64,000 nucleotides of DNA from an uncultured Clostridia bacterium (lineage in GTDB: Bacteria; Bacillota; Clostridia; UMGS1883), in the NCBI GenBank assembly GCA_947626145.1, contig CANQRB010000004.1, forward strand, positions 29,250 through 93,249. Reading direction: 5' to 3'. Both the position numbers and the translations under genes were made by a program. The notes beneath the pieces are model-generated. The model had not been told where the DNA came from and did not search any database. It worked only from the letters and a program-made list of their open reading frames with translations. Below, one piece after another: positions 9,760 to 33,246 of this stretch (position 1 is its first letter; each line of letters starts with the position of its first letter).

Positions 9760-10600
9760 CGTCACAAAAAAATACGGTGATTTCACTGCGCTTCAAGACA
9801 TAAACATTGAGTTTGACCGAGGAGTTTACGGACTGCTGGCGCCCAACGGAGCCGGAAAAACCACTCTGATGAAAATGCTGGCCACCCTTTCCTTCCCAAC
9901 AAAGGGGGAGATTTTGTGGAACGGCACGGATATATTTCAACTGGACGAGGAATACCGTGATATTCTGGGCTTTTTGCCGCAGAAGTTCGGCTATTACAGG
10001 AATTATTCCCCGCGCAGGTTCTTGGGCTACATGGCGGCGTTAAAAGGCATAGAAAAAAACGGGGCGGAGGAAAAAATCGACTCACTTCTTAAAAAGGTCT
10101 TTCTCGAAGAATTTGCGGATAAAAAAATGAAGCAGTTTTCAGGGGGTATGCTCCAACGGGTAGGCATCGCTCAGGCTCTGCTCAACGACCCCGAGCTGCT
10201 TATTCTGGACGAGCCCACCGCCGGACTTGACCCAAAGGAGCGGGTTCGCTTTCGCTCCATGCTCCACTCTTTGGCCGGTGAACGCATAGTTATTCTGTCA
10301 ACTCATATCGTTTCCGACATTGAAACAATAGCTGATAAAATAATTTTGCTTAAGGATCATAAACTGCTTTGCTGTGCCGCGCCCACAAGGCTGTGCTCCG
10401 CGTTGCAGGGCAAAATTTTTGAGATACCCGCCGACAGGCATATTGACGCGCCCTGTGAAATTCTGTATGAGCGCCAGACCGGAACAGGGACCGTCCTGCG
10501 TATTTACAGCGAGTCACGCCCTGACGGAGCAACGGAAACGGCCGCGAACCTTGAGGACGTGTTCCTGACGGTTTACCGTGACGAAAGGAGACAAAAATGA
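9743..10600 (+). CDS. ABC transporter ATP-binding protein
   Basis: Walker A GLLAPNGAGKTTL, ABC signature LSGGMLQRVGIAQAL, Walker B LLILDEPTAGLD. Confidence 0.9.
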   Translation: MLSVNNVTKKYGDFTALQDINIEFDRGVYGLLAPNGAGKTTLMKMLATLSFPTKGEILWNGTDIFQLDEEYRDILGFLPQKFGYYRNYSPRRFLGYMAALKGIEKNGAEEKIDSLLKKVFLEEFADKKMKQFSGGMLQRVGIAQALLNDPELLILDEPTAGLDPKERVRFRSMLHSLAGERIVILSTHIVSDIETIADKIILLKDHKLLCCAAPTRLCSALQGKIFEIPADRHIDAPCEILYERQTGTGTVLRIYSESRPDGATETAANLEDVFLTVYRDERRQK

Positions 10601-11751: not shown

Positions 11752-12933
11752 ATGTTTGTCTGGGAGCTCAGAAAAGTTTGGACAAAGGAGCATATCTTAC
11801 TCATCGCCGCGGTCACGCTTCTTTTTTCTCTGACCTTTCTTGTACCGCCAATAAGGTCGGTGACTGTGACAGAAGAGGGCGAGGAAATCTTCTCCGCGAG
11901 GATGGGGATAATCAAGGAGTGGCTCAATAAATATGACACACAAATTACGCCTCAGGAATTTGAAGAGATAAAAAGGATCTATGATGAACGCCTTTCCGAC
12001 GGACAGGCTGTCATTTCAACGCAGCCCTATTTCGCGGAGAATAATGTGTTTACTTATGACGACTATCTTTCTTACGGTAATAACGCCCTGAACGGCGCGG
12101 AAGGCTACTCCTACGACAGCTTCCGCAAAATGCGTGAGTTCATATCCGAAGGCACCGATTATTCCGCCATGTATTATCAGGAGTATGAAGATCTCATACA
12201 TAAATATGTTGACGGCAGCTCGCGAAAAGCTCGTTATATTGAAACGCTCCTGTCCGGCAAAGCCGAAAAGGCCGCAATATCCGAGCTCGACACGCTTCGC
12301 CGAACCAAAGGCGTCGGCAGTCTGCTGCCCGGCGAACTTGTGTACGCCGCAAACCGTTACTATGTCAACCTCTCAATTTTGCTCATTATATTGGCGATGT
12401 TCATTTCCGGGCCTGTCATGGTCAACGATAATGCCAATAACATTCGGCCGGGGCAATACAGCAGCAAAATCGGTCTCAAAATATATCAGCGTCAGTATGC
12501 GGCCATGGCGGTTTCTCTTTCCGCACTTACGGCACTCATGCTCATCGGCAGCTTGACGCTTTGGCTTGCAGTCGGGGCCGGCCGCTTTTTCCAATGCGGC
12601 ATCTTTGCTTTTCAAATGATGGAAACGCCGGTGACGGGCGATCTATCGTTTGGCGTGTATTTGGTTTTGATTTCGGCGCTGATTTTTATTCTTGTAAACG
12701 GTGTTGGCGGGCTTATGTTTTATCTTTCCGGCACGAGCCGCAATTTTATCGAGATGCTGATGAAATCGATACCCGCCGCGGTTTTTGGGATAATGCTGTC
12801 GCTTTCTTTAAATGACCTGTTTCTCAATACAAACTTTCTTTTCCGTATGACAGGGATAAGAGGTGTGGAGATTTTTCCGGTTATTTTGATTTTCATATTT
12901 GGATTATTGATAAATTTAAAAGGGATACGTTAG
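11752..12933 (+). CDS. Second ABC-2-like permease / membrane protein
   Basis: Same architecture as the preceding gene; starts immediately after its stop; RBS AAGGGAG. Confidence 0.55.
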   Translation: MFVWELRKVWTKEHILLIAAVTLLFSLTFLVPPIRSVTVTEEGEEIFSARMGIIKEWLNKYDTQITPQEFEEIKRIYDERLSDGQAVISTQPYFAENNVFTYDDYLSYGNNALNGAEGYSYDSFRKMREFISEGTDYSAMYYQEYEDLIHKYVDGSSRKARYIETLLSGKAEKAAISELDTLRRTKGVGSLLPGELVYAANRYYVNLSILLIILAMFISGPVMVNDNANNIRPGQYSSKIGLKIYQRQYAAMAVSLSALTALMLIGSLTLWLAVGAGRFFQCGIFAFQMMETPVTGDLSFGVYLVLISALIFILVNGVGGLMFYLSGTSRNFIEMLMKSIPAAVFGIMLSLSLNDLFLNTNFLFRMTGIRGVEIFPVILIFIFGLLINLKGIR

Positions 12934-19069: not shown

Positions 19070-19744
19070 TTATGCCTGAGTCGCGGCGTCCGTCTTGACT
19101 CTGCGGAAGCGCACCAGACCCGTACGGTGAAGGGCAACCATTATTGCCGGGATAAGCACAAGTTGAAGTATTATTCCGGGGATGGCGTTAAGCACCGCAG
19201 TCTGCGCAGGACAAAAAACCTGAAAAGATGTCGATTTCGCCTGACTTTGTTGGTCTATGTTGCATGGCGATCCGCTTCTGTGCAAGCTCAAAGATTTCTT
19301 CGTCAATTAACGGCTCATGCGTATTAGGTAAGAAATAGCGTTGTTCTGCCTCTTTTTCGACTTATACGAAACCTTGTGTGTTTTCTCAGTGATGATATGC
19401 CCTAAATACTTTTACCGTGTCAGGATGTCAAACAGCGTTTTCTCCGGCCATGTGTAAGGAGCGATCAAGGCTTTCTGATGTCGCGCATTCCTCGTCCGCT
19501 CATAACGTAATGCACCGATTGTCAAAACCTTGTTGTCGTCAAGCCATCGCTGAATATCGCACATCTGAGTATCCTTCACATACATGACGAAAATCTGCTT
19601 GACTATGAGATGTATCCGTATGGATATTCCCCGTTGACGTGCTCGCCCTTTTGAGTCCGCGCCTGCTTTGCGGCTCGGTGGTTGTCGCTCGGCATATTCT
19701 CTCGGATATGTGTCATGGCACACCCGCCGTATGGCTCGGCGCAA
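19070..19744 (-). pseudogene. Low-confidence gene fragments: a C-terminal membrane-protein remnant at 19070-19306 and an unidentified remnant at 19412-19744, inside a 2.4-kb region with no intact long ORF
   Basis: Only short, mutually overlapping ORFs on both strands; mixed GC; no RBS-supported starts. Confidence 0.2.
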
Positions 19745-20366
19745 AAGGGATGTGTCCTTTGTTGCTGTTATGATGCCTCGCTGTTATCTTGCGGGCAAAT
19801 TTGTCGAGGTTCGTACAGATGGGGAGTATCGGAAAGGGGGATTTATGCGCCGCTCCAGGTCGTCGGGTCAGTTCACCTGAAAAGTCAGAATTTTTGTAAT
19901 GAGCTTCGTTTCCAGTCTGCTGATCTTCGTCTACGCACAAATGAGGATTGCCATACTCGTCGTTTTCGATGTACACTGTATGATCCAGAATACCGAAAGC
20001 CCTGTCCTCTTTGAAATAACTGTCTCAGACTGAAAGCTGATTCATTACTTCAACAGGAAATTCGACAAAGAAAATCGCCTGCCTGCACATGGCAGGCGGG
20101 CGAAACGGAACTAACAGAAGTATTTACGTGATTTATGTGTTCATCTTCCTCGGCAGGGTATCCCGCTTGCTGGGTCAGACTTCTTTTGAGCGAAGAACCA
20201 TTGCCGGAATTTGTCGATATGGAATAGGCTTCATGGCGGCTACCTCCTGTTAGCCGCCATACCTGTTAGCCTGCAGTTTCTTCCCTTGTATCAAGAGAAA
20301 TGGCAGCCTATGAAAAACAAGCATATAACCAAGAGCAGCAGTATATAGGCTCTGCGTCTATGCGTC

Positions 20367-21538: not shown

Positions 21539-21988
21539 TTATCTCCTGTTTGCTTTTTTCAGTTCCTTTTGGGCGGCTTTGATTTCCCGTTGCAGTTCGT
21601 CAAGTTCCTGTTCCAGTGCGTCGGCAATATAATCTCCGGTAATCACAGCGGCACGAATCATACAGGCGGTGCTTACAATGGCATCCTCCACCTCTTTTCC
21701 GAGTCCGAGGAGTTCCAGAGAACCTGTGCCGTTTTCATCGTACAGCACCACGTCCGGAATCCCGTTTTTATCCGTGTCTCCGAAGTACAGATTGAATTCT
21801 CCGTCGCCGGTGAGATCCACCGCCAGCGTGTCAATATCTCCGTCGCCGGTGGTATCAAGCAAAGCCAAATCCGCTTCTTTATCTCCGTCAATATCGATCA
21901 AAATCTCGTCTTTTCCACTGCGAAGCAGTGTCTTGTGCCAGTCGCGGTCAAATTTCATTTTAGTTTTCAATTTTCTGAGGGTTCCCAT
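21539..21988 (-). CDS. Hypothetical protein with Asp/Gly-rich calcium-binding-like repeats (DxDGD) and a C-terminal coiled coil
   Basis: DIDGDKEADLALLDTTGDGDIDTLAVDLTGDGEF...DTDKNGIPD resembles EF-hand/dockerin-like loops. Confidence 0.45.
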   Translation of the reverse strand: MGTLRKLKTKMKFDRDWHKTLLRSGKDEILIDIDGDKEADLALLDTTGDGDIDTLAVDLTGDGEFNLYFGDTDKNGIPDVVLYDENGTGSLELLGLGKEVEDAIVSTACMIRAAVITGDYIADALEQELDELQREIKAAQKELKKANRR

Positions 21989-22089
21989 AGGTCATTGCTC
22001 CTTTTCTTTTATTTTGGGCTTTTTCAGCCTTTTTTATAGGGTTATTCTGTCCGCAACACAAACAGGGGCTCTCTTTGCGGCATTTCTGG

Positions 22090-22401
22090 AGGGGATGATG
22101 CCGGCAATTTCTGACGCAACAAGCACCCCACCCCTGTGGTGGCCGGGTAGTGTTTAACTTCGAAATAAATCAATGAAATCATTAGTAATCTTATAACTTC
22201 TCCCTTGATTTATTCCGTTTCATCCGATCCCATTTTTGCAGCAGCCTCTTTATAGAAACATCCAAATATCCAATATAATTTTGCCACCGTAAAATCCGCT
22301 TATGATAGGGGCCTTCCTTTCCAAAAAACTTGTTGGATTGATACCGTCTCTGCCGCTTCTCACAAATCATGATAGCAGAGAAATCTAAACTGAAACGAAA
22401 C
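22090..22401 (-). pseudogene. Degenerate partial duplication scar: copies of the relQ-operon promoter motif, the GT8 3' end and the pgsA-like 5' end, fused and decayed
   Basis: 22300-22401 aligns to 24640-24725 (promoter/leader of the SAS gene). 22105-22290 aligns to 22830-23100 with indels. No intact ORF. Confidence 0.55.
22369..22401 (-). promoter_or_regulatory. Copy (a) of the shared promoter motif, in the degenerate duplicate: GTTTCGTTTCAGTTTAGATTTCTCTGC-TATCAT on the minus strand
   Basis: Matches the motif at 24693-24725, 28689-28721 and 31643-31676. Confidence 0.4.
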
Positions 22402-22414
22402 TGTCTTTTTTCTT

Positions 22415-22987
22415 TTATTTGTGCGGAACAGGATTGTTTTTACTCAAAATATGCTTATAGTATCGGATATAAAGGATGAGAGACATAATCATCAAACATC
22501 CGCTTATTAGAATTAGACCATTTGCTATTTTCAATGGGATATCGGGGAAAAGGATAAGCACAGATATAACAATATACAAAAAAACTGTGTTCAACTTTCC
22601 ATACCATTTTGCGCTGTTGACAGTATCTTTTCGTTTCAAAGCAAGATATCCAAGCGTGGCCATGCAGATTTCTTTTCCGATAAACAATACGATCAGAACA
22701 GACATCCACTTATACCGACTCGAAAGGCAGACAATAAGTACACATTGCGTCAATTTATCCGCTATGGGGTCTAATATCTTGCCAAGATCGGATACCATAT
22801 GGAACTTCCGTGCAATGATACCATCAGCAATGTCCGTAATTGCTGACGCGACAAGCACTCCTGTGGCTGCTTGGTAGTGTTTGACCCCGATATAAAGCCA
22901 TACGATCAGCGGGATCATCAGTAATCTTATAACGCTAAGCAAATTCGGTATGGTCAGGATTTGGTCTTTTTTGAATATCCTGTGCAT
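22415..22987 (-). CDS. CDP-alcohol phosphatidyltransferase family protein (PgsA-like)
   Basis: DIADGIIARK...GKILDPIADKL motif (D-G-x2-A-R...G-x3-D-x3-D) and multiple TM helices; RBS AGGGAGG. Confidence 0.8.
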   Translation of the reverse strand: MHRIFKKDQILTIPNLLSVIRLLMIPLIVWLYIGVKHYQAATGVLVASAITDIADGIIARKFHMVSDLGKILDPIADKLTQCVLIVCLSSRYKWMSVLIVLFIGKEICMATLGYLALKRKDTVNSAKWYGKLNTVFLYIVISVLILFPDIPLKIANGLILISGCLMIMSLILYIRYYKHILSKNNPVPHK

Positions 22988-23005
22988 TGAATATCCTCCC
23001 TTAAT

Positions 23006-23851
23006 CTATTCCGTTTCATCTGATCTCATTTTTGCAACAGCCTCTTTATAGAACACATCCAAATCTCCGATATAATTTTCTTTCCACGGTTTATTCCTTC
23101 CGCAGTAGTGAATTATAATGGAGTGCTTTCGTACCCAATTCAAATCAAGACTTTTTTCAAATGGACTGTGCACCCGATAAAGCCACTCTGTCATGTTATA
23201 TCGAAATGGGTCCAGCGTATAGATTTTGCTGCCATACAGGCTGCTGATAATGTCCTGATCCGGAAAGACAAGATGAGATTTTCTCTTTTCGATGAAGTGA
23301 AACACATCCGCATAGTCCTGCTCTTTCCGTAAAAGCGAGAGGTTCATGAGCAACACGCCGGAATTAATATATGGGCTGTTGTCATCCATATCCAGACGCA
23401 GTTCATTGAACTTATGGAGAAACCCAAGACTGTCAATGTGTGACGCTGCCGCATAATAGTATTCTTCCATCGAGGTCTGATACAGTGGAAGAATCGAACC
23501 ATTGAGAACAAGATCGGGGTCAAGATAGAGCACGCGGTCGAGAGTCTCCGGCAGATAGCGTGCAGCAAAAATACGGTAATAAATCTCTTGTGGATAGCGC
23601 GAAGTTGTTGGGGCCTCGTCAAGCGCCAAATAATCAGCCTTTATTGGGATCAGACATCCTCCTGCCTTAAAAAGCATTTTTTCGGTTGCTTTAAGCGCCT
23701 GCTTTGAAATTGAGGAATGAAGAAGATACACATGGAATACGCAGCCTGGGTTGGAGCGAATCAAGGTTGAAAGCATCACATTCAAATAGGGGATGTAGTT
23801 TTCATCCAAAGTAACAAGAATATTAATCGGATTTATCAATCCAGGATTCAT
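23006..23851 (-). CDS. Glycosyltransferase family 8 (GspA / LPS-galactosyltransferase-like)
   Basis: GT8 pattern NILVTLDENYIPYLNVMLSTL, DxD-like LDPDLV, YINSGVLLMNL. Strong RBS AGGGAGG before the internal ATG at 23851; the ORF-track start at 23899 lacks an SD. Confidence 0.8.
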   Translation of the reverse strand: MNPGLINPINILVTLDENYIPYLNVMLSTLIRSNPGCVFHVYLLHSSISKQALKATEKMLFKAGGCLIPIKADYLALDEAPTTSRYPQEIYYRIFAARYLPETLDRVLYLDPDLVLNGSILPLYQTSMEEYYYAAASHIDSLGFLHKFNELRLDMDDNSPYINSGVLLMNLSLLRKEQDYADVFHFIEKRKSHLVFPDQDIISSLYGSKIYTLDPFRYNMTEWLYRVHSPFEKSLDLNWVRKHSIIIHYCGRNKPWKENYIGDLDVFYKEAVAKMRSDETE

Positions 23852-23917
23852 TTTAATCCCTCCCTGTTTCTTATGTTGTATATAGTCTTCTTCACCCATT
23901 CACAAATCCTACCATTT

Positions 23918-24625
23918 CTATCGTGGTTTCAGAGTATTTTTATTTTGTTGGGTCTTTTTTAAGAGGTTATCCATTCTCCGATCAAGTTCCGCGCTGAGGT
24001 TTGCGCACTGATAAAGTTCCTCAGCCATTTCCGGGGTAAATGCAGAATCCTTTTTATAACGAAGCTGATGTTCAAGGCTGGCCCAGAAATCCATCGCTAT
24101 CGTGCGCAGCTGAATTTCTACTTTCATCATCCGTTTTTCATGTGCCAAAAAGATCGGAATTGCTACAATCAGATGCAGACTTCTATATCCGTTGGGTTTC
24201 GGGTTTTTTATGTAGTCCTTTTTTTCAATCAGGGTAATGTCATCCTGTATGAGCAATGCCTCTGACAGCGCATAAACATCGTCCGGAAATGAGCAGATTA
24301 CTCGAACACCGGCAATATCGTTTAGATTTTCTTCTATAGAGGAAAGTGTGGGCGGGATGCCCCGCCGCTCCAATTTTTCTTTTATGCTGCGGGGATTTTT
24401 CAGTCTGGTTTTGATACTGCTTATCGGATTACGGTCGAATTCCAAAGAATATTCTTCATTCAACACATTGAATTTTGTTTCAATCTCCATCATGGCACAT
24501 TTGTAATAGGACATCAGGCGGATAAAAGGTACAGATTTTCTCTGCATCCAGTCGATTGTCTGATCGTCCACAATAGAGAGCATTCGTGTTTTTATATTTT
24601 CATCCTCTTGATTCCATTCAGACAT
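23918..24625 (-). CDS. Small alarmone synthetase (RelA/SpoT-domain GTP pyrophosphokinase, RelQ/RelP/YwaC-like)
   Basis: Single-domain RelA_SpoT synthetase motifs (GVRVICSFPDDVY...YRSLHLIV...EIQLRT). The track start is TTG; the likely start is ATG 24625 with AAGGAAG RBS. Confidence 0.8.
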   Translation of the reverse strand: MSEWNQEDENIKTRMLSIVDDQTIDWMQRKSVPFIRLMSYYKCAMMEIETKFNVLNEEYSLEFDRNPISSIKTRLKNPRSIKEKLERRGIPPTLSSIEENLNDIAGVRVICSFPDDVYALSEALLIQDDITLIEKKDYIKNPKPNGYRSLHLIVAIPIFLAHEKRMMKVEIQLRTIAMDFWASLEHQLRYKKDSAFTPEMAEELYQCANLSAELDRRMDNLLKKTQQNKNTLKPR

Positions 24626-24692
24626 TCTGATCTTCCTTTCCAAAAAACAAAGCTTGTTGGATCAATACCGGCTCTGCCGCTTTTCGCAGGTA

Positions 24693-24725
24693 ATGATAGC
24701 AGAGAAAACTAAACTGAAACAAAAC
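24693..24725 (-). promoter_or_regulatory. Copy (b) of the shared promoter motif upstream of the SAS-GT8-PgsA operon: GTTTTGTTTCAGTTTAGTTTTCTCTGC-TATCAT on the minus strand
   Basis: Conserved TTTCnTTTCAGTTTAG block, then 8 nt, then a -10-like hexamer, at fixed spacing; 65-100 nt upstream of the start codon. Confidence 0.55.
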
Positions 24726-24726
24726 A

Positions 24727-24758
24727 ACGACGGACCCTTCGAAAAAGAAGAATCCGTC
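24727..24758 (-). terminator. Candidate terminator of the Hsp70 operon (gacggattcttctttttcgaagggtccgtc then TTGTTTTGTTT on the minus strand), abutting promoter motif (b)
   Basis: Nested hairpin followed by a T-rich tract in the minus-strand direction. Confidence 0.35.
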
Positions 24759-24818
24759 TGACCGCTTTACGGCGGAAGTAATAAACTAATTTTATAACCA
24801 TTTCGCAAGTTGACTGTA

Positions 24819-26588
24819 TCAAGCTGCAAGGCAGCGAGCGTTGGCGCTGGATTGCTCCAGCCGGTCAGATGCTGCTTTGATTGCAGCCATCTCACTTTCA
24901 GTTACGGTTTCCGGTTTATATTTGCCAAGCAACTTTCGTAATGCAGAACAGTCTTCTTTAATCTGCTTTTTTTCTTCTTTTTCAAGCTGCTTCCCAACTT
25001 TGTGCAATGCCTGTTCAGCTTCTGATAATACCTTCCCTGCGCGATTAACCATTTCTAAAGAGTTACGGCGAACACCATCCTGTGCCGCATACTGTTCCGC
25101 ATCGCGAATCGCCTGTTCAATCTCCGCATCGGACATTTTATCATTGTTCGAAATGGTAATAGACTGTGCTTTCCCCGTATCCAAATCTCTTGCGGACACT
25201 TTTAAAATTCCATTGGCATCAATGTCGAAAGTAACTTCAATCTGCGGCACTCCTGCGGGGGCTTTCTTAATTCCGTTAAGTTTGAATTTGCCGATGGTCT
25301 TATTATCGCGTGCCATTGGCCGTTCTCCTTGTAGAACATGAATTTCCACACTGCTTTGAAACGGTGCCGCGGTTGAAAAAATCTGTGAATAGTGAATGGG
25401 CAAAGTGGAATTTCTCTCCACAAGACGTGTTGCGACACCGCCTACTGTTTCAATAGAAAGGCTGAGAGGGGTAACATCCAAAAGAAGGATACCGTTTTCC
25501 GAACCGGCAATCTGCAGCGAACCGCCAGAAAGCGTGTCTCCCTGAATGGCGGCGCCCTGAGCAACACACTCATCCGGATTGATATTCTTTGACGGTATAA
25601 TACCGGTCAATTGACGCACTTTTTCCTGAACAGCGGGAATACGGGTTGCGCCTCCGACAAGGATGACCTTGCCAAGTTCGGATGGCGCAATACCAGCATC
25701 ATTCAAGGCGTTCTGTACCGGAATTGCTGTTCGATCCACAAGATCGCGGGTCAGCTCGTTGAATTTGGCACGGGTGAGGATAGTATCAAAGTGTATTATG
25801 CCGTCCTTTTCCTGGGCCAGGTACGGCAGGCTTATCATAGCGTTCTCTGAGCCGGACAGTTCCTTTTTTGCCTGTTCAGCCGCTTCACGCACACGCTGCA
25901 ATGCTACATAATCTTTTTTTACATCTGTATGATACTGCCTCTGAATTTCCGAAATCAAATACTCAGTGATACGCTCATCAAAGTCATCGCCGCCCAAATG
26001 GTTATCACCATTTGTTGCCAGAACTTCTATAACGCCGTCTCCAATCTCAATGATGGAAACATCAAAAGTACCGCCGCCAAGGTCATATACCATGACCTTT
26101 TGCTGTGTTCCGTTATCCAGCCCGTAAGCAAGCGCGGCGCTGGTTGGCTCATTAATAATCCGTTTTACATTTAAGCCTGCAATTCGCCCGGCATCTTTTG
26201 TGGCCTGTCGCTGAATATCGTTAAAATAAGCGGGTACAGTGATGACCGCGTCCGTCACTTCCTCTCCAAGAAAGGCTTCTGCATCCTTGCGCAGTTTTCG
26301 TAGAATCATTGCACTGATCTCCTGCGGCGTAAATCTTTTACCGTCAATATTGATAGTCCAATCCGTCCCCATGTGACGTTTCACAGACGAAACGGTTCGG
26401 GACGCATTAGTAACCGCCTGTCGTCTTGCCGTTTCACCCACTAACCGTTCACCGGATGCGGTAAAAGCAACAATGCTGGGAGTGGTTCTTCCGCCTTGTT
26501 CGCTTGGAATGATAACGGGTTTGCCGCCCTCTACAAAAGCGACGCAGCTATTCGTTGTTCCAAGATCAATACCGATTGTTTTTCCCAC
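24819..26588 (-). CDS. Hsp70-family chaperone, atypical (not in an hrcA-grpE-dnaK-dnaJ context); probable GTG start giving [12 protein letters not shown]
   Basis: Actin-like NBD motifs [13 protein letters not shown] and [12 protein letters not shown], an SBD and a C-terminal lid; RBS AAAGGATGG before GTG 26588. Confidence 0.85.
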
Positions 26589-26605
26589 AGTAATTCCATC
26601 CTTTC

Positions 26606-27406
26606 CTACATACATCTAAGGCAGCCAAATGGGCCGCATAGGAATTGCATGGCTAAAAAGCCAAAACATATTTTTTGTATATTAGTGGCTTCCATATCGA
26701 AGCCTTTTGCATTTTGTTCATAGGTTTGCTCTGAACGGCGAAATTTTTGCAAAAGCAGATGATAGGTGCGATTATTCGGCTCCATTTGTGATGCTCTCTG
26801 CATATGGTCGATTGCCTGAACGGTGTTACCAAGACCATGATTGGCAAGAGCGCTTAAATAATACCACCTTGCACCTCGTCCTACGCTCGGTATACGGGTC
26901 AAAATCCAAATTGCCTCTTGATAGCGATGGTTATTGATTTCAGTAATGGCCTGCCTGATTTCCATATTGTCGCCCGGCTCAGGCTGCGGATTCATAAAAA
27001 CGGCATCATCATTGCCGTTCCGTTCAAATCCAAATCCAAAAATATTCCCAAAGTCAAAGCCGCCAAAATCGCTCGACCAGCCACCCGGACCTCGATAACC
27101 GCCAGAGCCGCCCTGCCTTTCATATCCGGTTCCACTATAACCGCCGTTTTGATTTTCCGTATATCCCCCATATTGCCTACTCTGTCCGTAAGATTGGCGC
27201 TGCTGTGCTCGCCTTGCCTCATACTTCTGCGGATTCATCAACATATCGTAGGCTTCATTCACCGCATTCATTTTTTGGCTCGCGGTCGGATCATCGGGAT
27301 GCAAGTCAGGATGATATTGCTTTGCCTTTTGACGATATGCTTTTTTTATTTCTTCTTTAGTCGCTCCTTTAGGAACGCCCAGAGTTTGATAAGGGTCATT
27401 GACCAT
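26606..27406 (-). CDS. J-domain protein (DnaJ-like N-terminus, Gly/Tyr-rich linker, TPR-like C-terminus)
   Basis: J-domain with HPD ([34 protein letters not shown]); lacks the DnaJ zinc-finger/CTD architecture. Confidence 0.8.
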
Positions 27407-27409
27407 GGC

Positions 27410-28228
27410 TCACTTTTTCCTTTCCGTCTGCATTTGCCGGTTATATTTGATCCAAACGCCAGAATAAAGAATGTTCCTTAAAATGTGGGCGTCCTGGACA
27501 AGCGGCAGCGATTCAAAGGCTTCAGCAGCTTCTCCGAGAATGGTCTTCAGCATGGAGCGGATTTCTTCCTGACTCAGAGTGACAGAAGAAAAAGGATTAT
27601 AACTTCCTTTTTTCTGGTCATGCCTTAAATCAATCGCGGCATCGGCAAGATAGATATACTTTCCGATATGATAACCAAACTTCTGCAAACGCGGCATCCA
27701 GTGATCCGGCTCAACCACAAAAATCGTTGACATCAATCTGCCAAAGCTGTTGGCTGCCGCATCTGGAGAGGCGAAGCAGGATTTCTCAATTTCAGAGATT
27801 TCATTTATTTCCTTTTCGATGATCGAACACTGATCTTTTCTTGCTGCTCTGACTTCTTCATAAGCCTTTTTAAGCAGAGTGGCATAGCACTTGTGGGAGA
27901 TATTTCGATCATCGTTCCAGTCGTCAAGACATTTGAAGTATGTCAAGGCTATTGTCATATCGGCGGCATAGTCTATATATTTACCGGACAGATAATTATG
28001 TTTCTTGCATGGATGCACGGCACATCGCACCGCTTTGCTGGTTTCCTCCGGTTCATACAAGGATGATAAAAACATAGCCAAGAATGTCAGATCGTATGTC
28101 AGTCCCAATCGCGACCTAAATCCATACCTTTCCCCCAACGCATGACACAATCCGCAATAAAAGGCACGATACCGTTCTTTTTCTTCATCAGTAAGACCGG
28201 ATAAATTGGCCTGTATGATTCCAAACAT
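27410..28228 (-). CDS. Conserved hypothetical protein (Cys-containing; in my recollection the kind of DUF found next to non-canonical dnaJ/hsp70 genes in Clostridia)
   Basis: No recognisable catalytic motifs; tightly packed between the J-protein and Zn-ribbon genes (3-nt and 9-nt gaps). Confidence 0.55.
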   Translation of the reverse strand: MFGIIQANLSGLTDEEKERYRAFYCGLCHALGERYGFRSRLGLTYDLTFLAMFLSSLYEPEETSKAVRCAVHPCKKHNYLSGKYIDYAADMTIALTYFKCLDDWNDDRNISHKCYATLLKKAYEEVRAARKDQCSIIEKEINEISEIEKSCFASPDAAANSFGRLMSTIFVVEPDHWMPRLQKFGYHIGKYIYLADAAIDLRHDQKKGSYNPFSSVTLSQEEIRSMLKTILGEAAEAFESLPLVQDAHILRNILYSGVWIKYNRQMQTERKK

Positions 28229-28237
28229 AGTGCCACC

Positions 28238-28648
28238 TCATGTTTTGCGGGTTATTTTGCCTTTACATACCGGACAAGTGATTTCAATTTGCCCTTTTCC
28301 TTTCGGAACTCGTAGCCAACTTTTGCAGTTCGGACATTTATAATACCGATGCGTCTTTCGATCTCGCCACATATTTTTCCGACGTTTGAAACTCTGCTTC
28401 ACTTTGTCTGTATATTTCAAGAAAGTTTCCCGCTCCTTCTGTCGTTTTTCAAGATTGCGGGAAAAGCTGCGAAACATCGACCAAATCAACAGAATCATCG
28501 CAATCGGATATAGCAGAGGGACGAGCGGGGAAATGAGTACGAAAACCAGCACCGCAATCAATAGAAATTTGGAAAGCTCGTCATAGCCGTATCTTCCGTA
28601 CATCCATGCCTGCATTTTTTCTCCGAGCCTTTGCAACCATCGTTTCAT
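28238..28648 (-). CDS. Membrane-anchored zinc-ribbon protein
   Basis: One TM helix followed by CPNCKSW...CPVCKGK (two CxxC pairs). Confidence 0.6.
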   Translation of the reverse strand: MKRWLQRLGEKMQAWMYGRYGYDELSKFLLIAVLVFVLISPLVPLLYPIAMILLIWSMFRSFSRNLEKRQKERETFLKYTDKVKQSFKRRKNMWRDRKTHRYYKCPNCKSWLRVPKGKGQIEITCPVCKGKITRKT

Positions 28649-28688
28649 TTTCCGTTTCTCCTTTATCGGCTTACTCTTTTTACACCAA

Positions 28689-28721
28689 ATTTTACAGCAA
28701 GAATCTAAACTGAAACGAAAC
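28689..28721 (-). promoter_or_regulatory. Copy (c) of the shared promoter motif upstream of the ZnR-DUF-DnaJ-Hsp70 operon: GTTTCGTTTCAGTTTAGATTCTTGCTG-TAAAAT on the minus strand
   Basis: Same block and spacing as copies (b) and (d); the extended -10 TGTAAAAT lies about 40 nt upstream of the ATG. Confidence 0.55.
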
Positions 28722-28928
28722 TAAGGAAGAGCTTTCTTCCAGACTATTTTTTCGGTAAGTTCAGTTCTGATAGATTTACTGAATAGCCGCAGAAGTCATA
28801 GACCTACATAAAAAAGAACCTCCACAACGAAGGCTCTCACGGTAAATCTCATATTGGAAGCGGCAGTATGCCTCACAGCACACTGCCACTTTACGCTTCT
28901 CATGCTTAATTAAATGTCCCGCACTATT

Positions 28929-29714
28929 TTATCCAATGCCTCTGAAAGCATTAACGGAAAGAATCGCCACGCCTAAAACCGTCAGCACCACACCAACAGC
29001 CCTGTTGAGCGTTTTGGCGCTGGCCTTGTTTGCGAACAATGCGGCGATCCTTGCCCACAACAGAGTAAACGCCACGCAGAGAGCGAGACACCATAGGTCG
29101 GGCATATCGCCAATGGCAAAATGACTGACGGCGCCGGTCAGCGCGGTAAAGGTCATAATAAAGACACTGGTACCCACAGCGGTTTTTAATTCATATCCCA
29201 AAATGCTGGTCAACAGAAGCAGCATCATCATTCCACCGCCTGCGCCCACAAAACCACAAATGAAGCCGACGACCATTCCGCAGACAATCGACTGAATCGT
29301 CCGCTTTTTTGCGCTTACGACAGCCATCGCCTCCTTTGTGGTCATGACAGGTTTTACAATAAATTTGATGCCCAAAAGCATCGTCATGAAGACGGAGAAG
29401 CTGCCCATAGTGGCGTTGGAGACCAGACTGGCTACCCAACTGCCTACTAAGGTGAAAAGCAAGACGGCCACCATCATAACAAGCCCGTTGCGAATGTCGA
29501 TGTTTTTGTTTTTTCCATAGGTATAGGCGCTGACCGCACTTGCCAGCACGTCACTTGCCAGAGCGATGCCTACCGCTTCATAAGCCGGCATACCCATAAA
29601 TGTGATCAGCATTGGGCTGATGACTGCGGCGGCGCTCATTCCGGCAAAACCGGTTCCCAAACCCGCTCCGATACCTGCTATAAAACAAACTAAAACTTTT
29701 ACCCACAGATTCAT
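28929..29714 (-). CDS. TSUP/TauE-SafE family membrane transporter (likely start MNLWVK at 29714)
   Basis: Gly-rich TM helices (GIGAGLGTGFAGMSAAAV...GGGMMMLLLL) typical of TauE/SafE; the internal ATG gives the typical about 260-aa length. Confidence 0.7.
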   Translation of the reverse strand: MNLWVKVLVCFIAGIGAGLGTGFAGMSAAAVISPMLITFMGMPAYEAVGIALASDVLASAVSAYTYGKNKNIDIRNGLVMMVAVLLFTLVGSWVASLVSNATMGSFSVFMTMLLGIKFIVKPVMTTKEAMAVVSAKKRTIQSIVCGMVVGFICGFVGAGGGMMMLLLLTSILGYELKTAVGTSVFIMTFTALTGAVSHFAIGDMPDLWCLALCVAFTLLWARIAALFANKASAKTLNRAVGVVLTVLGVAILSVNAFRGIG

Positions 29715-29845
29715 TTTGCGTTTTTCTCCATATATTTTTTTATATTCTTTTCCACCCGCGTTATGTAGGACTGAAACTGCCGCTGACCTCTTTGTCAAGA
29801 TCGTCTGCGATGATATCCGCAAAATCGAAGCACTCTGATAAAAAA

Positions 29846-30940
29846 TCAGTTTTTCTGGCTTTCTTCTTCTGCATTTAGCTTTGATTTCGGCAATGTAACC
29901 GTAAACATGGTAAGATTGTTTTCGCTTTGAACCGAAACCGTTCCGTTGTGCAATTCCACCACTTTTTTGACAATTGCAAGCCCGATTCCGTTTCCCTCAC
30001 CGGAGTGTGAACTGTCAGCCTGATAAAATTTCTGAAAGATTCGTGATATACTTTCCGCAGGAATTTCCTCTCCCGAATTGATGATATCCACGGACAGGGA
30101 AGACGGTTGATTTTTAATATTGACTTCAATGACTCCTCCAGCGGGAGAAAATTTGATCGCGTTATCCAGCAGATTGATCCACACCTGTTTCAAAAGCTCC
30201 TCATTGGCAGAAATCCTGTATTCACCGAAATCCACTTTAAAGTCCAGTTGCTTTTTTTCCCACTTGTCGGCAAGCAACAGGATGGAAGACCGGATTTGTT
30301 CTGAAAGGTTAAACTTTACAACATCCGTTAAAATCGTTTGATTTTCTACCCGCGTCAGATTCAACACGTTTGTCGCCATATCAGAAAGCCGCAGAGATTC
30401 TTCTTCGATAACCGCCAAATATTCCCCTTTTTGTTCTTCTGTCAGGTTGCCTCGGCGAAGCAGCTTTGCAAAGCCGGCAATAGATACGATGGGCGTTTTG
30501 AATTCATGCGAAAAATTATTTACAAAATCCCCACGAAGCATCTCTGTATTTTTGAGTTCAGAAGCCATTCGATTGAAGCTGTGCGAAAGCTGCGAAAAAG
30601 TAGGATGTTTGGATATGGGCCATCCGAAATCCAATCGGGCACTGAAATCACCGGATGCCAGCCGATCGATTTGATAAATTACATTCCGCAGGGGGCGGGC
30701 GGATATTTTACTGGATAAATAGGCAACAATGACACCGACAATATTACTGATGACGATCATGTAGAGGATGATAATACCGATGTTTGATCGGATATCGGTA
30801 TCAAGCGTGACAACTTGAAAATGTACCAGCATATAAATAATAGAAGCGGTTATTGAAGTAATAATAAATTGAATGAAAAAAATAAGTGTCGATATTAAAA
30901 ACGTGAGCGCAAAATAATGTTTTCGATTTTGTTTGTTCAT
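29846..30940 (-). CDS. Intramembrane-sensing sensor histidine kinase (two N-terminal TM helices with a short loop, HisKA, HATPase_c)
   Basis: H-box SHEFKTPIVSIAGFAKLL; N/G1/G2 boxes (LLDNAIKF, GEGNGIGLAIVKK); the extracellular loop is only about 14 aa. Confidence 0.85.
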   Translation of the reverse strand: MNKQNRKHYFALTFLISTLIFFIQFIITSITASIIYMLVHFQVVTLDTDIRSNIGIIILYMIVISNIVGVIVAYLSSKISARPLRNVIYQIDRLASGDFSARLDFGWPISKHPTFSQLSHSFNRMASELKNTEMLRGDFVNNFSHEFKTPIVSIAGFAKLLRRGNLTEEQKGEYLAVIEEESLRLSDMATNVLNLTRVENQTILTDVVKFNLSEQIRSSILLLADKWEKKQLDFKVDFGEYRISANEELLKQVWINLLDNAIKFSPAGGVIEVNIKNQPSSLSVDIINSGEEIPAESISRIFQKFYQADSSHSGEGNGIGLAIVKKVVELHNGTVSVQSENNLTMFTVTLPKSKLNAEEESQKN

Positions 30941-31611
30941 ACTTTTTTCACCGCCTTATATCCGAGCCCGCGCACGGATTCGATATCAAATTCTTCCCAA
31001 CCCTCGAACCGTTTGCGGAGCCTGCCGATGTGAACCGTCACAGTTTCCCACCCGGTATCGCTCTCAGCGCCCCAGATTTCATCCATCAGTTGAATCCGTG
31101 TAAAAATCTTTCCGGGGTATGACAGCAATTTATAAAGTAACAAAAATTCCTTTTGCGGGAGTTCTTGTGTCTCGCCGTTTTTGGTCACGGTAAAGGAATC
31201 GTAATCCAAAATTACATTTCCAATCGTCATTTTACGTTCGTTGGCAATTTGAGCGCGGCGTAGAAGTGCTTTGATTCGCCAGAGCATTTCTTCCTCATCA
31301 ATCGGTTTTGTCATGTAGTCGTCAATCCCTAATGAAAAACCTTTATGTTTATCTTCGGGGAGCTGTTTTGCCGAAACCATAAGAATGGGAAGATTGTTCT
31401 TGCTTTCGCGGAGGATTTTTGTAAATTCATATCCGTCCATTTTCGGCATCATTATGTCGAGAATCACAAGGTCAATATACTCTTTATCCATTACATCGAG
31501 GGCGTCTTCACCGTTTTCCGCAGTAAATACAGAATAGTGCTCCGTTTCAAGCACGGCTTTGAGCAGCCGGCGTGTATTTTTATCGTCGTCTACAACAAGA
31601 ATTTGGAACAT
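30937..31611 (-). CDS. OmpR-family response regulator (REC plus winged-helix), 4-nt overlap with the kinase gene
   Basis: Receiver motifs DDD/D55-like (LVILDIMMPKMDG) and T/K; C-terminal trans_reg_C (TVHIGRLRKRF...LGYKAV). Confidence 0.9.
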   Translation of the reverse strand: MFQILVVDDDKNTRRLLKAVLETEHYSVFTAENGEDALDVMDKEYIDLVILDIMMPKMDGYEFTKILRESKNNLPILMVSAKQLPEDKHKGFSLGIDDYMTKPIDEEEMLWRIKALLRRAQIANERKMTIGNVILDYDSFTVTKNGETQELPQKEFLLLYKLLSYPGKIFTRIQLMDEIWGAESDTGWETVTVHIGRLRKRFEGWEEFDIESVRGLGYKAVKKV

Positions 31612-31642
31612 TGTTTACACCTCCTAATAATCAATATAAGAT

Positions 31643-31676
31643 AAGATAACATACAAATCTAAACTGAAAAGAAAGT
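31643..31676 (-). promoter_or_regulatory. Copy (d) of the shared promoter motif upstream of the RR-HK-TauE operon: ACTTTCTTTTCAGTTTAGATTTGTATGT-TATCTT on the minus strand
   Basis: Same block and spacing; sits 32-65 nt upstream of the RR start codon. Confidence 0.55.
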
Positions 31677-32096
31677 GTGCGAGTTTAATCCCCAAAATTT
31701 ATTATTTCGTTCAGCAGGCTTTTTCGCGTCTTTGAGCAACAGCCACATCTTTCCCATTTTATCGACTCCTGCAATACGTCCGGCAAAACAGTAATAATTT
31801 AATCATGCGGGGAGAGATACCCCATTTTTCGCTGCCTATTTGAACGTCATGTAATTAAAATATCGCACCTCCACATATAAAATTATATTTCGTTATCTTG
31901 AAGAAAGCAAGTGCATTTGATGAACATTAGATGAATTATTTACCCTCGCTACTGAAACTGTAAAGACATATCCAAATAAAGAAAGGGACTGTAAAATGGA
32001 TCAATTTCAATAAAGCGGACAGAAAAACATAAGATGGCAGGAAATTATGTAAAATATTCAATATCCATATTTCTCATAAAGTATATCACATAAAAA

Positions 32097-32472: not shown

Positions 32473-32787
32473 ATGGATGTACAAAAGCGCATCAGGTAGT
32501 TGATGGCGGAAAGAGGCTGGTCAGACTATAGGCTTGCAAAGGAGTCCAACCTCTCTCACTCAACTATAACGAATATATTCAACAGAAATAACGCCCCAAC
32601 GCTGCCAACATTGGAGTCCGTATGTTCCGCTTTGGGGGTAACCATGTCACAGTTTTTCACTGAAGGCGACGAACCCGTTGTGTTGAGCAGCGAACAAAAA
32701 ATAATACTTGATAGGTTCAACACGTTATCACCGACTCAGAGAAAAGTCATTATTGAACTGCCTGGCAATATGAACAAAGGCACATGA
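32473..32787 (+). pseudogene. XRE-family (Cro/C1 HTH) transcriptional regulator interrupted by an in-frame TAG at codon 9 (32497-32499); an N-truncated product could initiate at ATG 32503
   Basis: ATG 32473 with GAAGG RBS encodes MDVQKRIR-TAG-LMAERGWSDYRLAKESNLSHSTITNIF. The canonical HTH N-terminus spans the stop. Confidence 0.55.
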
Positions 32788-32870: not shown

Positions 32871-32880
32871 CAAATATAAA

Positions 32881-32994
32881 AATCTAACGATTACTCAATA
32901 ATCCAACGATTACCCCAAAAAACTAACGATTTCCCATAAAACCAACGATTTCCCATAAATCCAACGATTTCCCATAAATCCAACGATTACACGG
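32881..32994. repeat. Iteron-like array: about six contiguous direct repeats of a 19-20-bp unit (consensus CCAACGATTTCCCATAAAT)
   Basis: Units at 32881, 32900, 32922, 32941, 32961 and 32980; the core AACGATT recurs every 19-21 bp. Confidence 0.7.
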
Positions 32995-33153: not shown

Positions 33154-33246
33154 TGGCGGAGAGAAAGGGATTCGAACCCTTGATCGGGGTTAACCGATAC
33201 ACGATTTCCAGTCGTGCGCCTTAGACCAGCTCAGCCATCTCTCCGC
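33154..33246 (-). tRNA. tRNA-Ser (anticodon GGA), class II with long variable arm, CCA encoded
   Basis: Minus-strand read GCGGAGAGATGGCTGAGCTGGTCTAAGGCGCACGACTGGAAATCGTG...GGTTCGAATCCCTTTCTCTCCGCCA: acceptor, D, anticodon (CU-GGA-AA), long extra arm, TΨC GGTTCGAATCC. Confidence 0.85.

Follow-up and report, generated by a model that had tools for sequence, protein, structure and literature searches.

A tandem-repeat promoter box and its adjacent OmpR-type response regulator as a candidate autoregulated regulon for the homeostasis of membrane lipids and proteins in Clostridia

Four promoters on the minus strand of the window (the whole 64-kb stretch of DNA analysed here) carry GTTTCGTTTCAGTTTAG-like boxes. 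Going by sequence, it seems likely that the box is the DNA-binding site of the response regulator (RR) encoded at 30937–31611, which would act at all four promoters as an activator. The resulting autoregulated two-component regulon may be read, with a label taken from target annotation, as one for membrane lipid and protein homeostasis. The cluster with its four box promoters spans 9 kb and sits within a low-GC island of about 29 kb adjoining a tRNA-Ser; the same island holds an ECF sigma gene (8472–9041) 13 kb from the cluster, and the next gene upstream of the two-component system (TCS) is of the Xre-type HTH kind (32500–32787).

The boxes lie at 31643–31675 (P1), 28689–28721 (P2), 24693–24725 (P3) and 22369–22401 (P4), and these four copies, listed in a first-pass annotation, were all found again by pattern scan and by weight matrix. 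Their 19-mers are TTTCTTTTCAGTTTAGATT (31656–31674), TTTCGTTTCAGTTTAGATT (28702–28720), TTTTGTTTCAGTTTAGTTT (24706–24724) and again TTTCGTTTCAGTTTAGATT (22382–22400), and form a direct repeat of 11-bp period, GTTTMK-N5-GTTTAG, which reads CTTTCT-TTTCA-GTTTAG at P1, GTTTCG-TTTCA-GTTTAG at P2 and P4, and GTTTTG-TTTCA-GTTTAG at P3. With up to three mismatches to the 19-mer pattern the 64 kb yields these four matches and no further copy, against 0.14 expected from shuffles. A weight matrix from 52 sites, all of other species, gives P1 to P4 32.1, 40.2, 35.0 and 40.3 bits respectively; every other position in the 64-kb window stays below 12 bits, and in Markov shuffles there are 0–1 matches. Exactly 10 nt past the 16-mer (8 nt past ...ATT as first described) there is in four of four sites a −10-like hexamer, TATCTT at P1 (31648–31643), TAAAAT at P2 and TATCAT at P3 and P4, confirming the identical spacing claimed earlier. 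Across species TAnnnT is held at this offset in 52 of 67 sites, and the half-site G is conserved at −1 in 58 and at +10 in 61 of 67. A consensus scan called no sigma-70 −35 at the box promoters, so they are expected to be weak without an activator, and they belong to the PhoB/CiaR class of promoter. The earlier suggestion of a shared activator site in the −35 place gains support from the 11-bp direct repeat lying 10 nt from a sigma-A-type −10.

The gene content first described agrees with Pfam throughout, from the RR, histidine kinase (HK) and TauE through Zn-ribbon, DnaJ and Hsp70 to the small alarmone synthetase (SAS), GT8 and CDP-OH_P_transf. Terminator-like hairpins on the minus strand, at 28814–28838 (3' of TauE) and 24729–24758 (3' of Hsp70), set three minus-strand units apart, the presumed operons. 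P1 lies 32 nt upstream of the start codon of the RR gene, whose OmpR/PhoB-family product of 224 aa (Pfam Response_reg and Trans_reg_C; orthologue alignment) has D52 in its receiver domain and the recognition helix GWETVTVHIGRLRKRF. It scores under every NCBIfam equivalog cut-off, with PhoB as best match at 179 bits against a cut-off of 296. The HK gene (29846–30940) overlaps the RR gene by 4 nt and encodes 364 aa with HAMP, HisKA and HATPase_c domains and two TM helices separated by an outer loop of about 12 aa. The TauE/SafE-family permease (28929–29714), with its ATG at 29714 as on public contigs, is probably co-transcribed with the TCS; the 131-nt HK-TauE gap has neither box nor terminator, and an alternative TTG start at 29822 is also open.

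Behind P2 come a 136-aa membrane protein (28238–28648) that has two TM helices and, at its C-terminus, a CPxC...CPxC zinc ribbon (Pfam), a 272-aa DUF5685 protein (27410–28228), a J-domain protein (26606–27406) in which a G/F-rich linker and a TPR-like region are accompanied by a hydrophobic C-terminus rich in Cys, and an Hsp70/DnaK paralogue (24819–26615) of 589–598 aa by start codon. The Zn-ribbon protein and DUF5685 are found together in independent loci, and DUF5685, with invariant residues DDWxD (102–106), D196/D200 and C25/C28/C69/H72, is predicted to have a class I isoprenoid-synthase-like fold. P3, with a leader of 68 nt after its −10, precedes a YjbM/RelQ-like SAS of 235 aa (23918–24625; RelA_SpoT domain), a GT8 glycosyltransferase (23006–23899) and a CDP-alcohol phosphatidyltransferase (22415–22987) that is PgsA/ClsA-like and under both cut-offs.

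Evidence as to which protein reads the box comes from 80 loci of other species, gathered and compared on the basis of their RR and HK. Where the RR orthologue has at least 65% identity, 32 of 41 loci carry at least one box, against 8 of 39 below 65% (Fisher p = 4e-7), a test that shares loci with the weight matrix and so is not fully independent of it, although the seed pattern was derived from the window and not from RR identity. Below 65% identity, 7 of the 8 sites directly adjoin RR/HK genes, and site densities counted for the association are 8.4–9.6 versus 0.6–1.7 per 100 kb. A site of at least 18 bits is absent from 9 of the 41 orthologous loci, some of which are short contigs, and the site in L029 is half-degenerate. 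Among the 80 loci about 24 boxes lie upstream of the RR gene and about 42 ahead of other, neighbouring genes. Between loci the flanks and target genes vary and the HKs are just ~50–58% identical, so that conservation of the box is not neutral descent. The helix GWETVTVHIGRLRKRF is invariant among the box-carrying RR group in the orthologue alignment. RRs of 50–57% identity have TDTHTVDVHIGRLRERF, and GTTGA(A/G)-type repeats of the same architecture occur in loci of that group (L045, L052, L053, L058) and with the L090/L092 TCS. The correlation of helix and box is imperfect, since L067, L068 and L072 combine distant RRs (44–47% identity) and a different recognition helix with a similar box. RR co-occurrence in other families of Clostridia, the boxes upstream of RR genes and the recognition helix together favour the adjacent OmpR-type RR as the autoregulated regulator, as the first-pass annotation had proposed.

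The box-linked neighbours in the 80 loci (Pfam) are FakA, DegV, PlsX, PlsC-like acyltransferases, PgsA, DAGK, FtsH and the Hsp70/J-protein module, and further ZnR, SAS and ABC transporters, with lipid-synthesis, FtsH or Hsp70 genes making up the majority of targets. In L006, L007 and L086/L087, whose RRs are 82–89% identical, a box 3' of the HK precedes a fused ABC_tran-FtsX (MacB-like) transporter of ~1000 aa, and ABC exporters are targets in three additional loci. Since lipid, ftsH, hsp70 and ABC exporter genes are the targets in other Clostridia, the regulon is described as one of membrane lipid and membrane-protein homeostasis. The envelope-stress-like character first given to the gene set broadly stands, sharpened by the target genes to membrane lipid synthesis and membrane proteostasis. 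The regulon seen in the window is a local form of a widespread one and is not confined to its source genome, related gut Clostridia having the same regulator and box ahead of membrane-lipid, FtsH and Hsp70 genes.

In the mechanism proposed, the kinase would phosphorylate the RR upon membrane perturbation, the presumed signal, and an RR~P dimer would bind head-to-tail to the tandem half-sites GTTT(C/A)(G/T) and GTTTAG, the starts of which are 11 bp apart, in the −35 place and with 10 nt between the end of the box and a sigma-A-type −10. Bound RR~P would then recruit RNA polymerase by class II activation, as do PhoB and CiaR, rather than repress. Its targets would be its own operon with the TauE permease; the membrane-linked J-protein/Hsp70 module with the Zn-ribbon membrane protein and the isoprenoid-synthase-fold DUF5685; the SAS with the GT8 glycosyltransferase and PgsA-like phosphatidyltransferase; and an intact promoter surviving from a tandem duplicate of this third operon. 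The same pair of RR and box would drive fakA, degV, plsX, plsC-like, pgsA, DAG-kinase-like, ftsH, hsp70 and ABC exporter genes in other Clostridia.

It could be held that the boxes are alike by common descent, through local duplication within the island and with no shared regulator. P3 and P4 are indeed clear duplicates, 84–86% identical over ~90 nt with the leader included, and so the window holds three independent box instances and not four. As an account of all the boxes this is very improbable, because P1 and P2 share with P3/P4 just the 17–19-nt box and the −10 position, in unrelated flanks, and because box and spacing recur before non-homologous genes in many bacterial families. Very little credence can likewise be given to the box as the −35/spacer of an alternative sigma such as the ECF sigma 13 kb away, an option the first-pass annotation had allowed. 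A conserved block and a hexamer at fixed distance downstream do formally amount to a sigma-specific promoter, but the hexamer is the canonical sigma-A TAnnnT/TATAAT and not an ECF-type −10, the 11-bp-period repeat, extended at some loci (e.g. L022, L023) to three or four half-sites, is a trait of RRs and not of sigma region 4, and the box tracks RR orthologues through loci of very different gene content.

A site overlapping the −35 may also serve repression, and an Xre-family gene stands immediately upstream of the TCS, but that the RR represses via the box, or that another protein such as this Xre-type one reads it, is improbable given the want of a recognisable −35 and the same geometry as for PhoB and CiaR, both activators. 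Xre dimers as a rule bind inverted repeats, and the 11-bp direct repeat suits winged-helix RR dimers better. Lastly, RR and box may be real and yet belong to a BceRS/ABC-type detoxification module sensing drugs or peptides, to which the lipid and chaperone genes would have been added in particular lineages. The box-driven MacB-like transporter of the closest relatives and the ABC exporters elsewhere speak for such a module, which is unlikely rather than implausible: no ABC transporter gene lies behind any box in the window, targets across loci are mainly lipid-synthesis, FtsH or Hsp70 genes, and the window HK has a HAMP domain where BceS-type kinases do not. The reading of an RR-activated homeostasis regulon is thus the one preferred.

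Among known systems CiaRH is autoregulated, has the protein-quality-control gene htrA in its regulon and shows envelope and beta-lactam phenotypes. The CiaR box of Streptococcus pneumoniae is TTTAAG-N5-TTTAAG with 10 nt to the −10 (PMC3091779). That layout is identical to the GTTTMK-N5-GTTTAG, 10 nt, TAnnnT arrangement here, both RRs are of the OmpR family and the half-sites have 4 of 6 bases in common. In contrast, the recognition helices differ, VVEVYVSKVRKKL in CiaR and TVTVHIGRLRKRF in the window RR, the window kinase has its outer loop of just ~12 aa, and csRNA-like genes did not turn up among the targets, which comprise lipid synthesis, FtsH, Hsp70 and SAS genes. At the pho-box promoters of E. 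coli PhoB/PhoR, 11-bp direct repeats replace the −35 at 10 bp from the −10 and a winged-helix dimer effects class II activation. The tandem repeats of the same period in the same place and the NCBIfam match recall PhoB, but the window RR falls well short of the PhoB equivalog cut-off, the kinase architecture is unlike and no pst/pho genes are among the targets of the box.

The SaeR box is a direct repeat, GTTAAN6GTTAA, differing from that here. In Staphylococcus aureus the activity of SaeRS is linked to fatty-acid kinase and to the lipid state of the membrane (PMC5539427). Both systems combine a kinase of the intramembrane-sensing type, its outer linker very short, with an OmpR-type RR and a direct-repeat box, but Sae controls virulence factors with accessory SaeP/Q, whereas here fakA, degV and plsX are themselves targets. 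The Firmicute cell-envelope stress systems LiaFSR/VraSR, BceRS-AB and sigma-M/sigma-W are similar in intramembrane sensing and in inducing membrane-protective genes; some related loci have ABC transporters as targets, and small alarmone synthetases are induced by envelope stress in B. subtilis and S. aureus. However LiaR and VraR are of the NarL type and depend on LiaF, BceS is without HAMP and needs BceAB, and sigma-M and sigma-W belong to the ECF sigmas and use AAC/CGT promoters, and none of these traits is present in the window system. HexRK of Clostridioides difficile controls an operon for glycolipid synthesis and influences resistance to daptomycin and bacitracin (PMC10128005). By its description it too is a clostridial TCS over membrane-lipid synthesis, but its target operon is hexSDF; no C. 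difficile locus is among the 80 RR-related loci kept.

P4, which begins 13 nt past the stop codon of the PgsA-like gene, had been taken for a decayed copy, wrongly so, as it is intact and the best-scoring of the four window sites; it is the operon behind it that has decayed. Its remnant (22098–22368, minus strand) matches the intact SAS-GT8-PgsA operon over the leader and promoter (22313–22401 versus 24632–24725, 84%), the GT8 3' end (22200–22282 versus 22996–23079, 90%) and PgsA codons ~19–52 (22098–22197 versus 22830–22933, 70%), the SAS and most of GT8 being deleted. The first intact gene 3' of P4 is a minus-strand ORF (21539–21988) encoding 149 aa with D-x-D-x-D repeats; it has a good RBS and is a possible target of read-through from P4.

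All four copies of the promoter element that the first-pass annotation had placed in the window are present on its minus strand, box and -10 being read directly in each case: CTTTCTTTTCAGTTTAGATTTGTATGTTATCTT at 31675-31643 (P1, before the response regulator, histidine kinase and TauE genes), GTTTCGTTTCAGTTTAGATTCTTGCTGTAAAAT at 28721-28689 (P2, before ZnR, DUF5685, DnaJ and Hsp70), GTTTTGTTTCAGTTTAGTTTTCTCTGCTATCAT at 24725-24693 (P3, before a small alarmone synthetase (SAS), GT8 and a PgsA-like gene) and GTTTCGTTTCAGTTTAGATTTCTCTGCTATCAT at 22401-22369 (P4). A degenerate 19-mer with up to three mismatches finds these four matches (two of them duplicates) and no other in the 64-kb window, as against 0.14 expected from shuffles; allowing one mismatch in the 11-mer core brings in one further match, an unrelated one on the plus strand. 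With a position weight matrix (PWM) made from the sites of other species exactly four window sites are found at 32-40 bits, all else in the window scoring 12 bits or less. The gene content read from the sequence is borne out by Pfam (RR, HK with HAMP/HisKA/HATPase_c, TauE, Zn-ribbon, DUF5685, J-domain, Hsp70, RelA_SpoT, GT8 and CDP-alcohol phosphatidyltransferase), and the division into three operons by terminator-like hairpins at 28838-28814 (after TauE) and 24758-24729 (after Hsp70), which separate the units.

The box itself is a 16-mer tandem repeat, G-TTT-C/A-G/T, N5, G-TTT-A-G, with half-site starts 11 bp apart. Among 67 sites gathered from other species with a loose consensus, the G before TTT is kept in 58 at the first half-site and 61 at the second, and TAnnnT lies exactly 10 nt past the second half-site in 52, a spacing that the four window sites also fit. 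The -10 hexamers of the other-species sites have the A/T preferences typical of a sigma-A -10. Direct repeats that replace the -35, one helical turn apart and 10 bp from the -10, are a signature of OmpR/PhoB-type activators, and the window promoters have just this class II layout, the repeats standing ~10 bp before a sigma-70-type -10. Three to four in-phase half-sites occur at some target promoters in other species (L022:12300-12337, L023:3336-3362; for example GTTTTG-N5-GTTTCG-N5-GTTTAG), which would imply higher-order binding of the regulator there.

The alternatives to an activator site fare less well. Were these ordinary sigma-70 promoters a -35 should be seen, but a consensus promoter scan calls none at P1-P4, none of the four is called as such a promoter and the best -35 alignment by eye reaches 3/6. 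An ECF-sigma promoter is hinted at by TGAAAC in the reverse complement, but on inspection this comes without a CGTA-type -10 and in an orientation that points away from the genes. Thus from the earlier choice between an activator site over the -35 and an alternative-sigma element, the first stands with its direct-repeat OmpR/PhoB layout, and the second is disfavoured by the sigma-A-like -10 and the lack of a CGTA-type one. A riboswitch or other structured leader finds no backing either, since the leaders give no Rfam match at E <= 1, the only real match being the tRNA, and their folding does not surpass that of shuffled sequences (z = +0.3 to +0.6).

The response regulator (RR, 30937-31611) has a receiver and a winged-helix domain (Response_reg 1.1e-32 and Trans_reg_C 7.4e-18 in Pfam), with acidic residues DDD at 8-10 and D52 read from the sequence. 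Against the NCBIfam equivalogs its best match is PhoB at 179 bits, the cut-off being 296, and it falls below the cut-off of each of the best 25 families listed (PhoB, VanR, YycF/WalR, CseB, CpxR, BaeR and others). The system is a very common one: a search with the RR gives over 8000 database proteins at E <= 1e-40, the best 120, from metagenomes, being 83-96% identical. For a cross-species set one genome per species was scanned, giving 80 loci; orthologues that are 65-82% identical to the window RR come from MAGs with labels such as Oscillospiraceae, Acutalibacteraceae, Ruminococcus, Lachnospiraceae, Christensenella and Erysipelotrichaceae. One recurring position of the box in these loci is 50-90 nt before the RR start codon, which points to autoregulation; the other is right after the kinase stop codon or a few kb off, before other genes.

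The adjacent RR had been put forward as the autoregulated regulator, and the co-occurrence of box and regulator speaks for it. A site of at least 18 bits is present in 32 of the 41 loci whose RR is at least 65% identical, as against 8 of the 39 below that (Fisher p = 4e-7; PWM and enrichment statistics draw on one set of loci), and seven of those eight sites are directly beside RR/HK genes of more distant relatives. Box density is likewise 8.4-9.6 versus 0.6-1.7 per 100 kb, higher with the closer RR orthologues. Since box flanks are not conserved between loci, kinases are ~50-58% identical and downstream genes differ, the persistence of the box is put down to selection rather than to recent shared ancestry. 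RRs of the box-carrying group have a practically invariant winged-helix recognition region, GWETVTVHIGRLRKRF; in RRs at 50-57% identity it is TDTHTVDVHIGRLRERF, and four loci with such RRs (L045, L052, L053 and L058) have a different repeat, of the GTTGAA/GTTGAG type, with the same architecture. Judged from sequence, the adjacent RR is by a wide margin the best candidate for reading the box, and the predicted mechanism is that of a standard autoregulated OmpR/PhoB-type system with promoters like those of CiaR and PhoB.

The histidine kinase (HK, 29846-30940) overlaps the RR stop codon and has HAMP, HisKA and HATPase_c domains with the H-box SHEFKTP; it too lies below every NCBIfam equivalog cut-off among its best 25 matches listed. 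Its topology, read by eye, has hydrophobic residues at 10-41 and 55-78 with a loop of ~12-13 aa between, and so it has the form of an intramembrane-sensing kinase (two TM, loop under ~25 aa). Over 33 orthologues and the window kinase, identity is 0.29 in TM1, 0.12 in the loop, 0.31 in TM2 and 0.77 in the DHp; so poorly conserved a membrane part speaks against recognition of a particular extracellular ligand and would suit a kinase that senses within the membrane.

This two-component system (TCS) can be compared with several named ones. The CiaR box of streptococci, TTTAAG-N5-TTTAAG with 10 to TATAAT (PMC3091779), has exactly the layout of the window box, but its half-sites differ and so does the CiaR helix (VVEVYVSKVRKKL against TVTVHIGRLRKRF in the window RR), so that the two share an architecture and not the marks that identify CiaRH. 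BceRS-BceAB systems have HAMP-less kinases, whereas the window HK has a HAMP (29.3 bits, cut-off 25), and no ABC transporter is in the window cluster, MacB-like fused transporters being found in relatives (L006, L007, L086). For LiaFSR/VraSR a NarL/FixJ regulator and a HisKA_3 kinase are expected; the window RR has Trans_reg_C, its HK has HisKA, and no LiaF-like gene is in the cluster. In content the regulon is like HexRK, a lipid circuit of C. difficile (PMC10128005), and like envelope-stress regulons, so the resemblance to envelope-stress stimulons suggested by the first-pass annotation holds at that level, with no membership in LiaFSR, BceRS or ECF systems. Full-text literature searches on the TCS, the box and the ZnR-DUF5685-J module found nothing, and the literal string TTTCAGTTTAG was matched only in papers on unrelated topics. 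It is apparently an undescribed but well-defined regulon of a very widespread clostridial TCS.

What the box controls elsewhere was surveyed by taking the first ORF past each box-plus-TAnnnT site in other species, annotating it with Pfam and tallying by BLAST, a simple first-ORF rule in which the functional label rests on Pfam names. The RR gene itself is the commonest target, with 21 cases. FtsH has four sites plus one weaker, FakA four, PlsC-like acyltransferases three, ABC exporters three loci and ABC_trans_CmpB two; MacB-like fused ABC-FtsX genes are targets in L006, L007 and L086, counted apart from the ABC exporters; Hsp70 or its ZnR-led operon follows the box in L010 and L020, with a degenerate site in L029. 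Single targets include DegV, PlsX, a YegS/DAG-kinase-like lipid kinase, an ACP-like and an Lgt-like protein, Zn_peptidase_2, an SAS (L019) and a 1407-aa BcrAD_BadFG+DUF2229 protein, an architecture which we take to be that described for clostridial plasmalogen synthase. Directly after the HK there are also PlsY-like and PgsA-like genes in L008, L025 and L011, the PgsA-like gene identified by tblastn and the PlsY-like ones only from N-terminal translation. The common denominator is the supply of membrane phospholipids together with quality control of membrane proteins, exporters being added in some lineages, and the window set (PgsA-like, GT8, SAS, J-protein/Hsp70 with Zn-ribbon, and TauE) fits this membrane theme.

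At several box promoters TTTGTCGAAAA stands immediately downstream of the -10 (L014:4808-4818, L017:6748-6758, L032:11884-11894 and 6125-6135, L035, L038 and L027), and the genes served are lipid genes: fakA, plsX, plsC-like and Zn_peptidase_2. It matches the 0A box of Spo0A, TGTCGAA (PMC3485338), and so suggests that sporulation control may be superimposed on the box regulon in several other species; none of the four window promoters has an exact 0A box.

A search with DUF5685 alone indicates that ZnR, DUF5685 and the J-protein travel together in metagenomes. Loci that lack a following Hsp70 gene, L098 for one, still have the triad, and so the triad is the core and the DnaK paralogue optional. 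The J-protein has a hydrophobic, Cys-rich C-terminus in the window (26606-27406), and its counterpart in L098 (6557-8916) ends ...ACCLANLCCNACCAGCGGG. DUF5685, a family with 5089 or more members and no annotated function, for which the literature search found only one in-silico survey of C. difficile hypothetical proteins, is predicted to adopt the all-alpha fold of class I isoprenoid synthases. This comes from fold search, the sole informative approach, as at the sequence level there is no match to solved structures, including any PDB prenyltransferase. Invariant residues D102, D103, W104 and D106 (DDWxD) with D196 and D200, and the nearly invariant D204, sit where long helices end and are candidates for the two Asp-rich metal-binding motifs (FARM and SARM) of such synthases.

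Distant DUF5685 modules (36-54% identity) have no box upstream except in L089, and in those without it a different regulator is used, or else a paralogous TCS whose box is of the TTGAG type. In L090 (6646-7000) and L092 (2526-2880) a TCS whose RR is 51% identical to that of the window is divergent from a DUF5685-DnaJ-Hsp70-ZnR operon, and it too has a repeat of the GTTGAA/GTTGAG type: towards DUF5685 ATTGAGG-N4-GTTGAGA-N4-TTTGAGG, 10 nt and TTAATA, and towards the RR GTTGAGC-N4-ATTGAGC, 9 nt and TATAAT. The RR genes of L045, L053 and L058 have similar GTTGAA repeats in front of them. The TTGAG-type repeats in both directions indicate that control of the module by the wider TCS family is older than the divergence of the boxes.

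A more far-reaching and, as we see it, rather unlikely reading is that the TCS acts as a 'membrane homeostat', conserved among gut and rumen Clostridia and able to move horizontally. The intramembrane kinase would respond not to a ligand but to the state of the bilayer as a whole (for example lipid packing, free fatty acids, or damage by bile or solvents), and the response would have three parts. Phospholipid supply would be co-induced through genes of the Fak/PlsX/PlsC/PgsA type; membrane-protein quality control would be raised through FtsH and a J-protein/Hsp70 machine that is tethered to the membrane and has the Zn-ribbon protein and the isoprenoid-synthase-fold protein at its centre; and the small alarmone synthetase would slow growth. 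In the window the whole circuit would travel as a self-contained, island-borne regulon. If true, this would bear on the tolerance of gut commensals to bile, detergents and lipopeptides.

We know of no box, regulon or signal for most two-component systems of anaerobic gut Firmicutes, and here a box with fixed promoter geometry provides an immediately usable regulon predictor, together with the hypothesis that the system controls how fatty acids are incorporated and phospholipid head groups made, along with FtsH and a dedicated Hsp70 system. DUF5685 gains a first structural lead, the predicted isoprenoid-synthase fold, and a genetic tie to a J-protein.

The fourth copy had been described as decayed, but at 40.3 bits P4 outscores the other three window sites, and what is gutted is the operon behind it, a second copy of SAS-GT8-PgsA. 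There the stretch 22313-22401 corresponds to promoter, leader and RBS of P3 at 84%, 22200-22282 to the last GT8 codons and intergenic region at 90% (FYKEAAAKMGSDETE against FYKEAVAKMRSDETE, each up to the stop) and 22098-22197 to the PgsA codons ~19-52 at 70%, while SAS and most of GT8 are deleted. These remnants and the deletion point to a tandem operon duplication followed by internal deletion. The next intact gene, an ORF of 149 aa, has Asp-rich repeats and is preceded by a good RBS (21988); no convincing terminator is seen between P4 and this ORF, and P4, together with read-through from P3, may now drive it.

The whole regulon is held in a low-GC segment of ~29 kb, from ~4.5 to ~33.5 kb, with GC of 0.38-0.48 as against 0.52-0.63 outside. 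It is set off from its flanks by composition, and a tRNA gene, tRNA-Ser(gga) at 33154-33244, stands at its right border; the left flank has SecA, RF2 and GtrA-like genes and the right flank aromatic amino-acid biosynthesis genes. A chimeric assembly could produce such a break, but the right junction is spanned by an independent 9.3-kb contig of another sample (L118) carrying aro genes, Peptidase_C26, Xre, RR and HK, and the RR is joined to the flanking chorismate synthase on one 191-kb contig. Plasmid origin of the cluster is not favoured, megablast of 22000-32000 against PLSDB giving no match. No integrase is present among the 22 window ORFs compared with Pfam (12 of them in the island; 19412-19744, 19682-20014 and smaller ORFs left out) and the tRNA 3' end is not repeated at the left border, so the segment is best called a compositional island and not demonstrably a mobile element. 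The closest RR relative with long context (89% identity, L086:5068-14845) has its TCS adjoining relaxase-like, type I restriction and SIR2 genes, and the box after its HK precedes a 1007-aa fused ABC_tran-FtsX (MacB-like) gene and not the genes of the window. Such a setting would fit a TCS cassette that often moves horizontally, and suggests that the cassette swaps cargo as it does so.

Other island genes are an ECF sigma with an ABC ATPase, a 1443-aa SLH/thermolysin-like protein, DUF1269 and an Xre-type gene. The ECF module (8472-12933) has no box, and comprises the sigma gene (8472-9041), a 249-aa ORF without Pfam match that is possibly an anti-sigma, the ABC ATPase and two ~390-aa ORFs without Pfam match. 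At 32875-32988, between the tRNA-Ser terminator and the Xre-family HTH gene (32500-32787, plus strand), there are five to six tandem iteron-like repeats of 19-20 nt (AATCGTTGGATTTATGGGA-like), which might serve the Xre protein as an operator array or be what is left of an old replication or integration site. Two public contigs from the same organism, L001 and L002, stop at 32935 and 32552 respectively, within or just short of these repeats.
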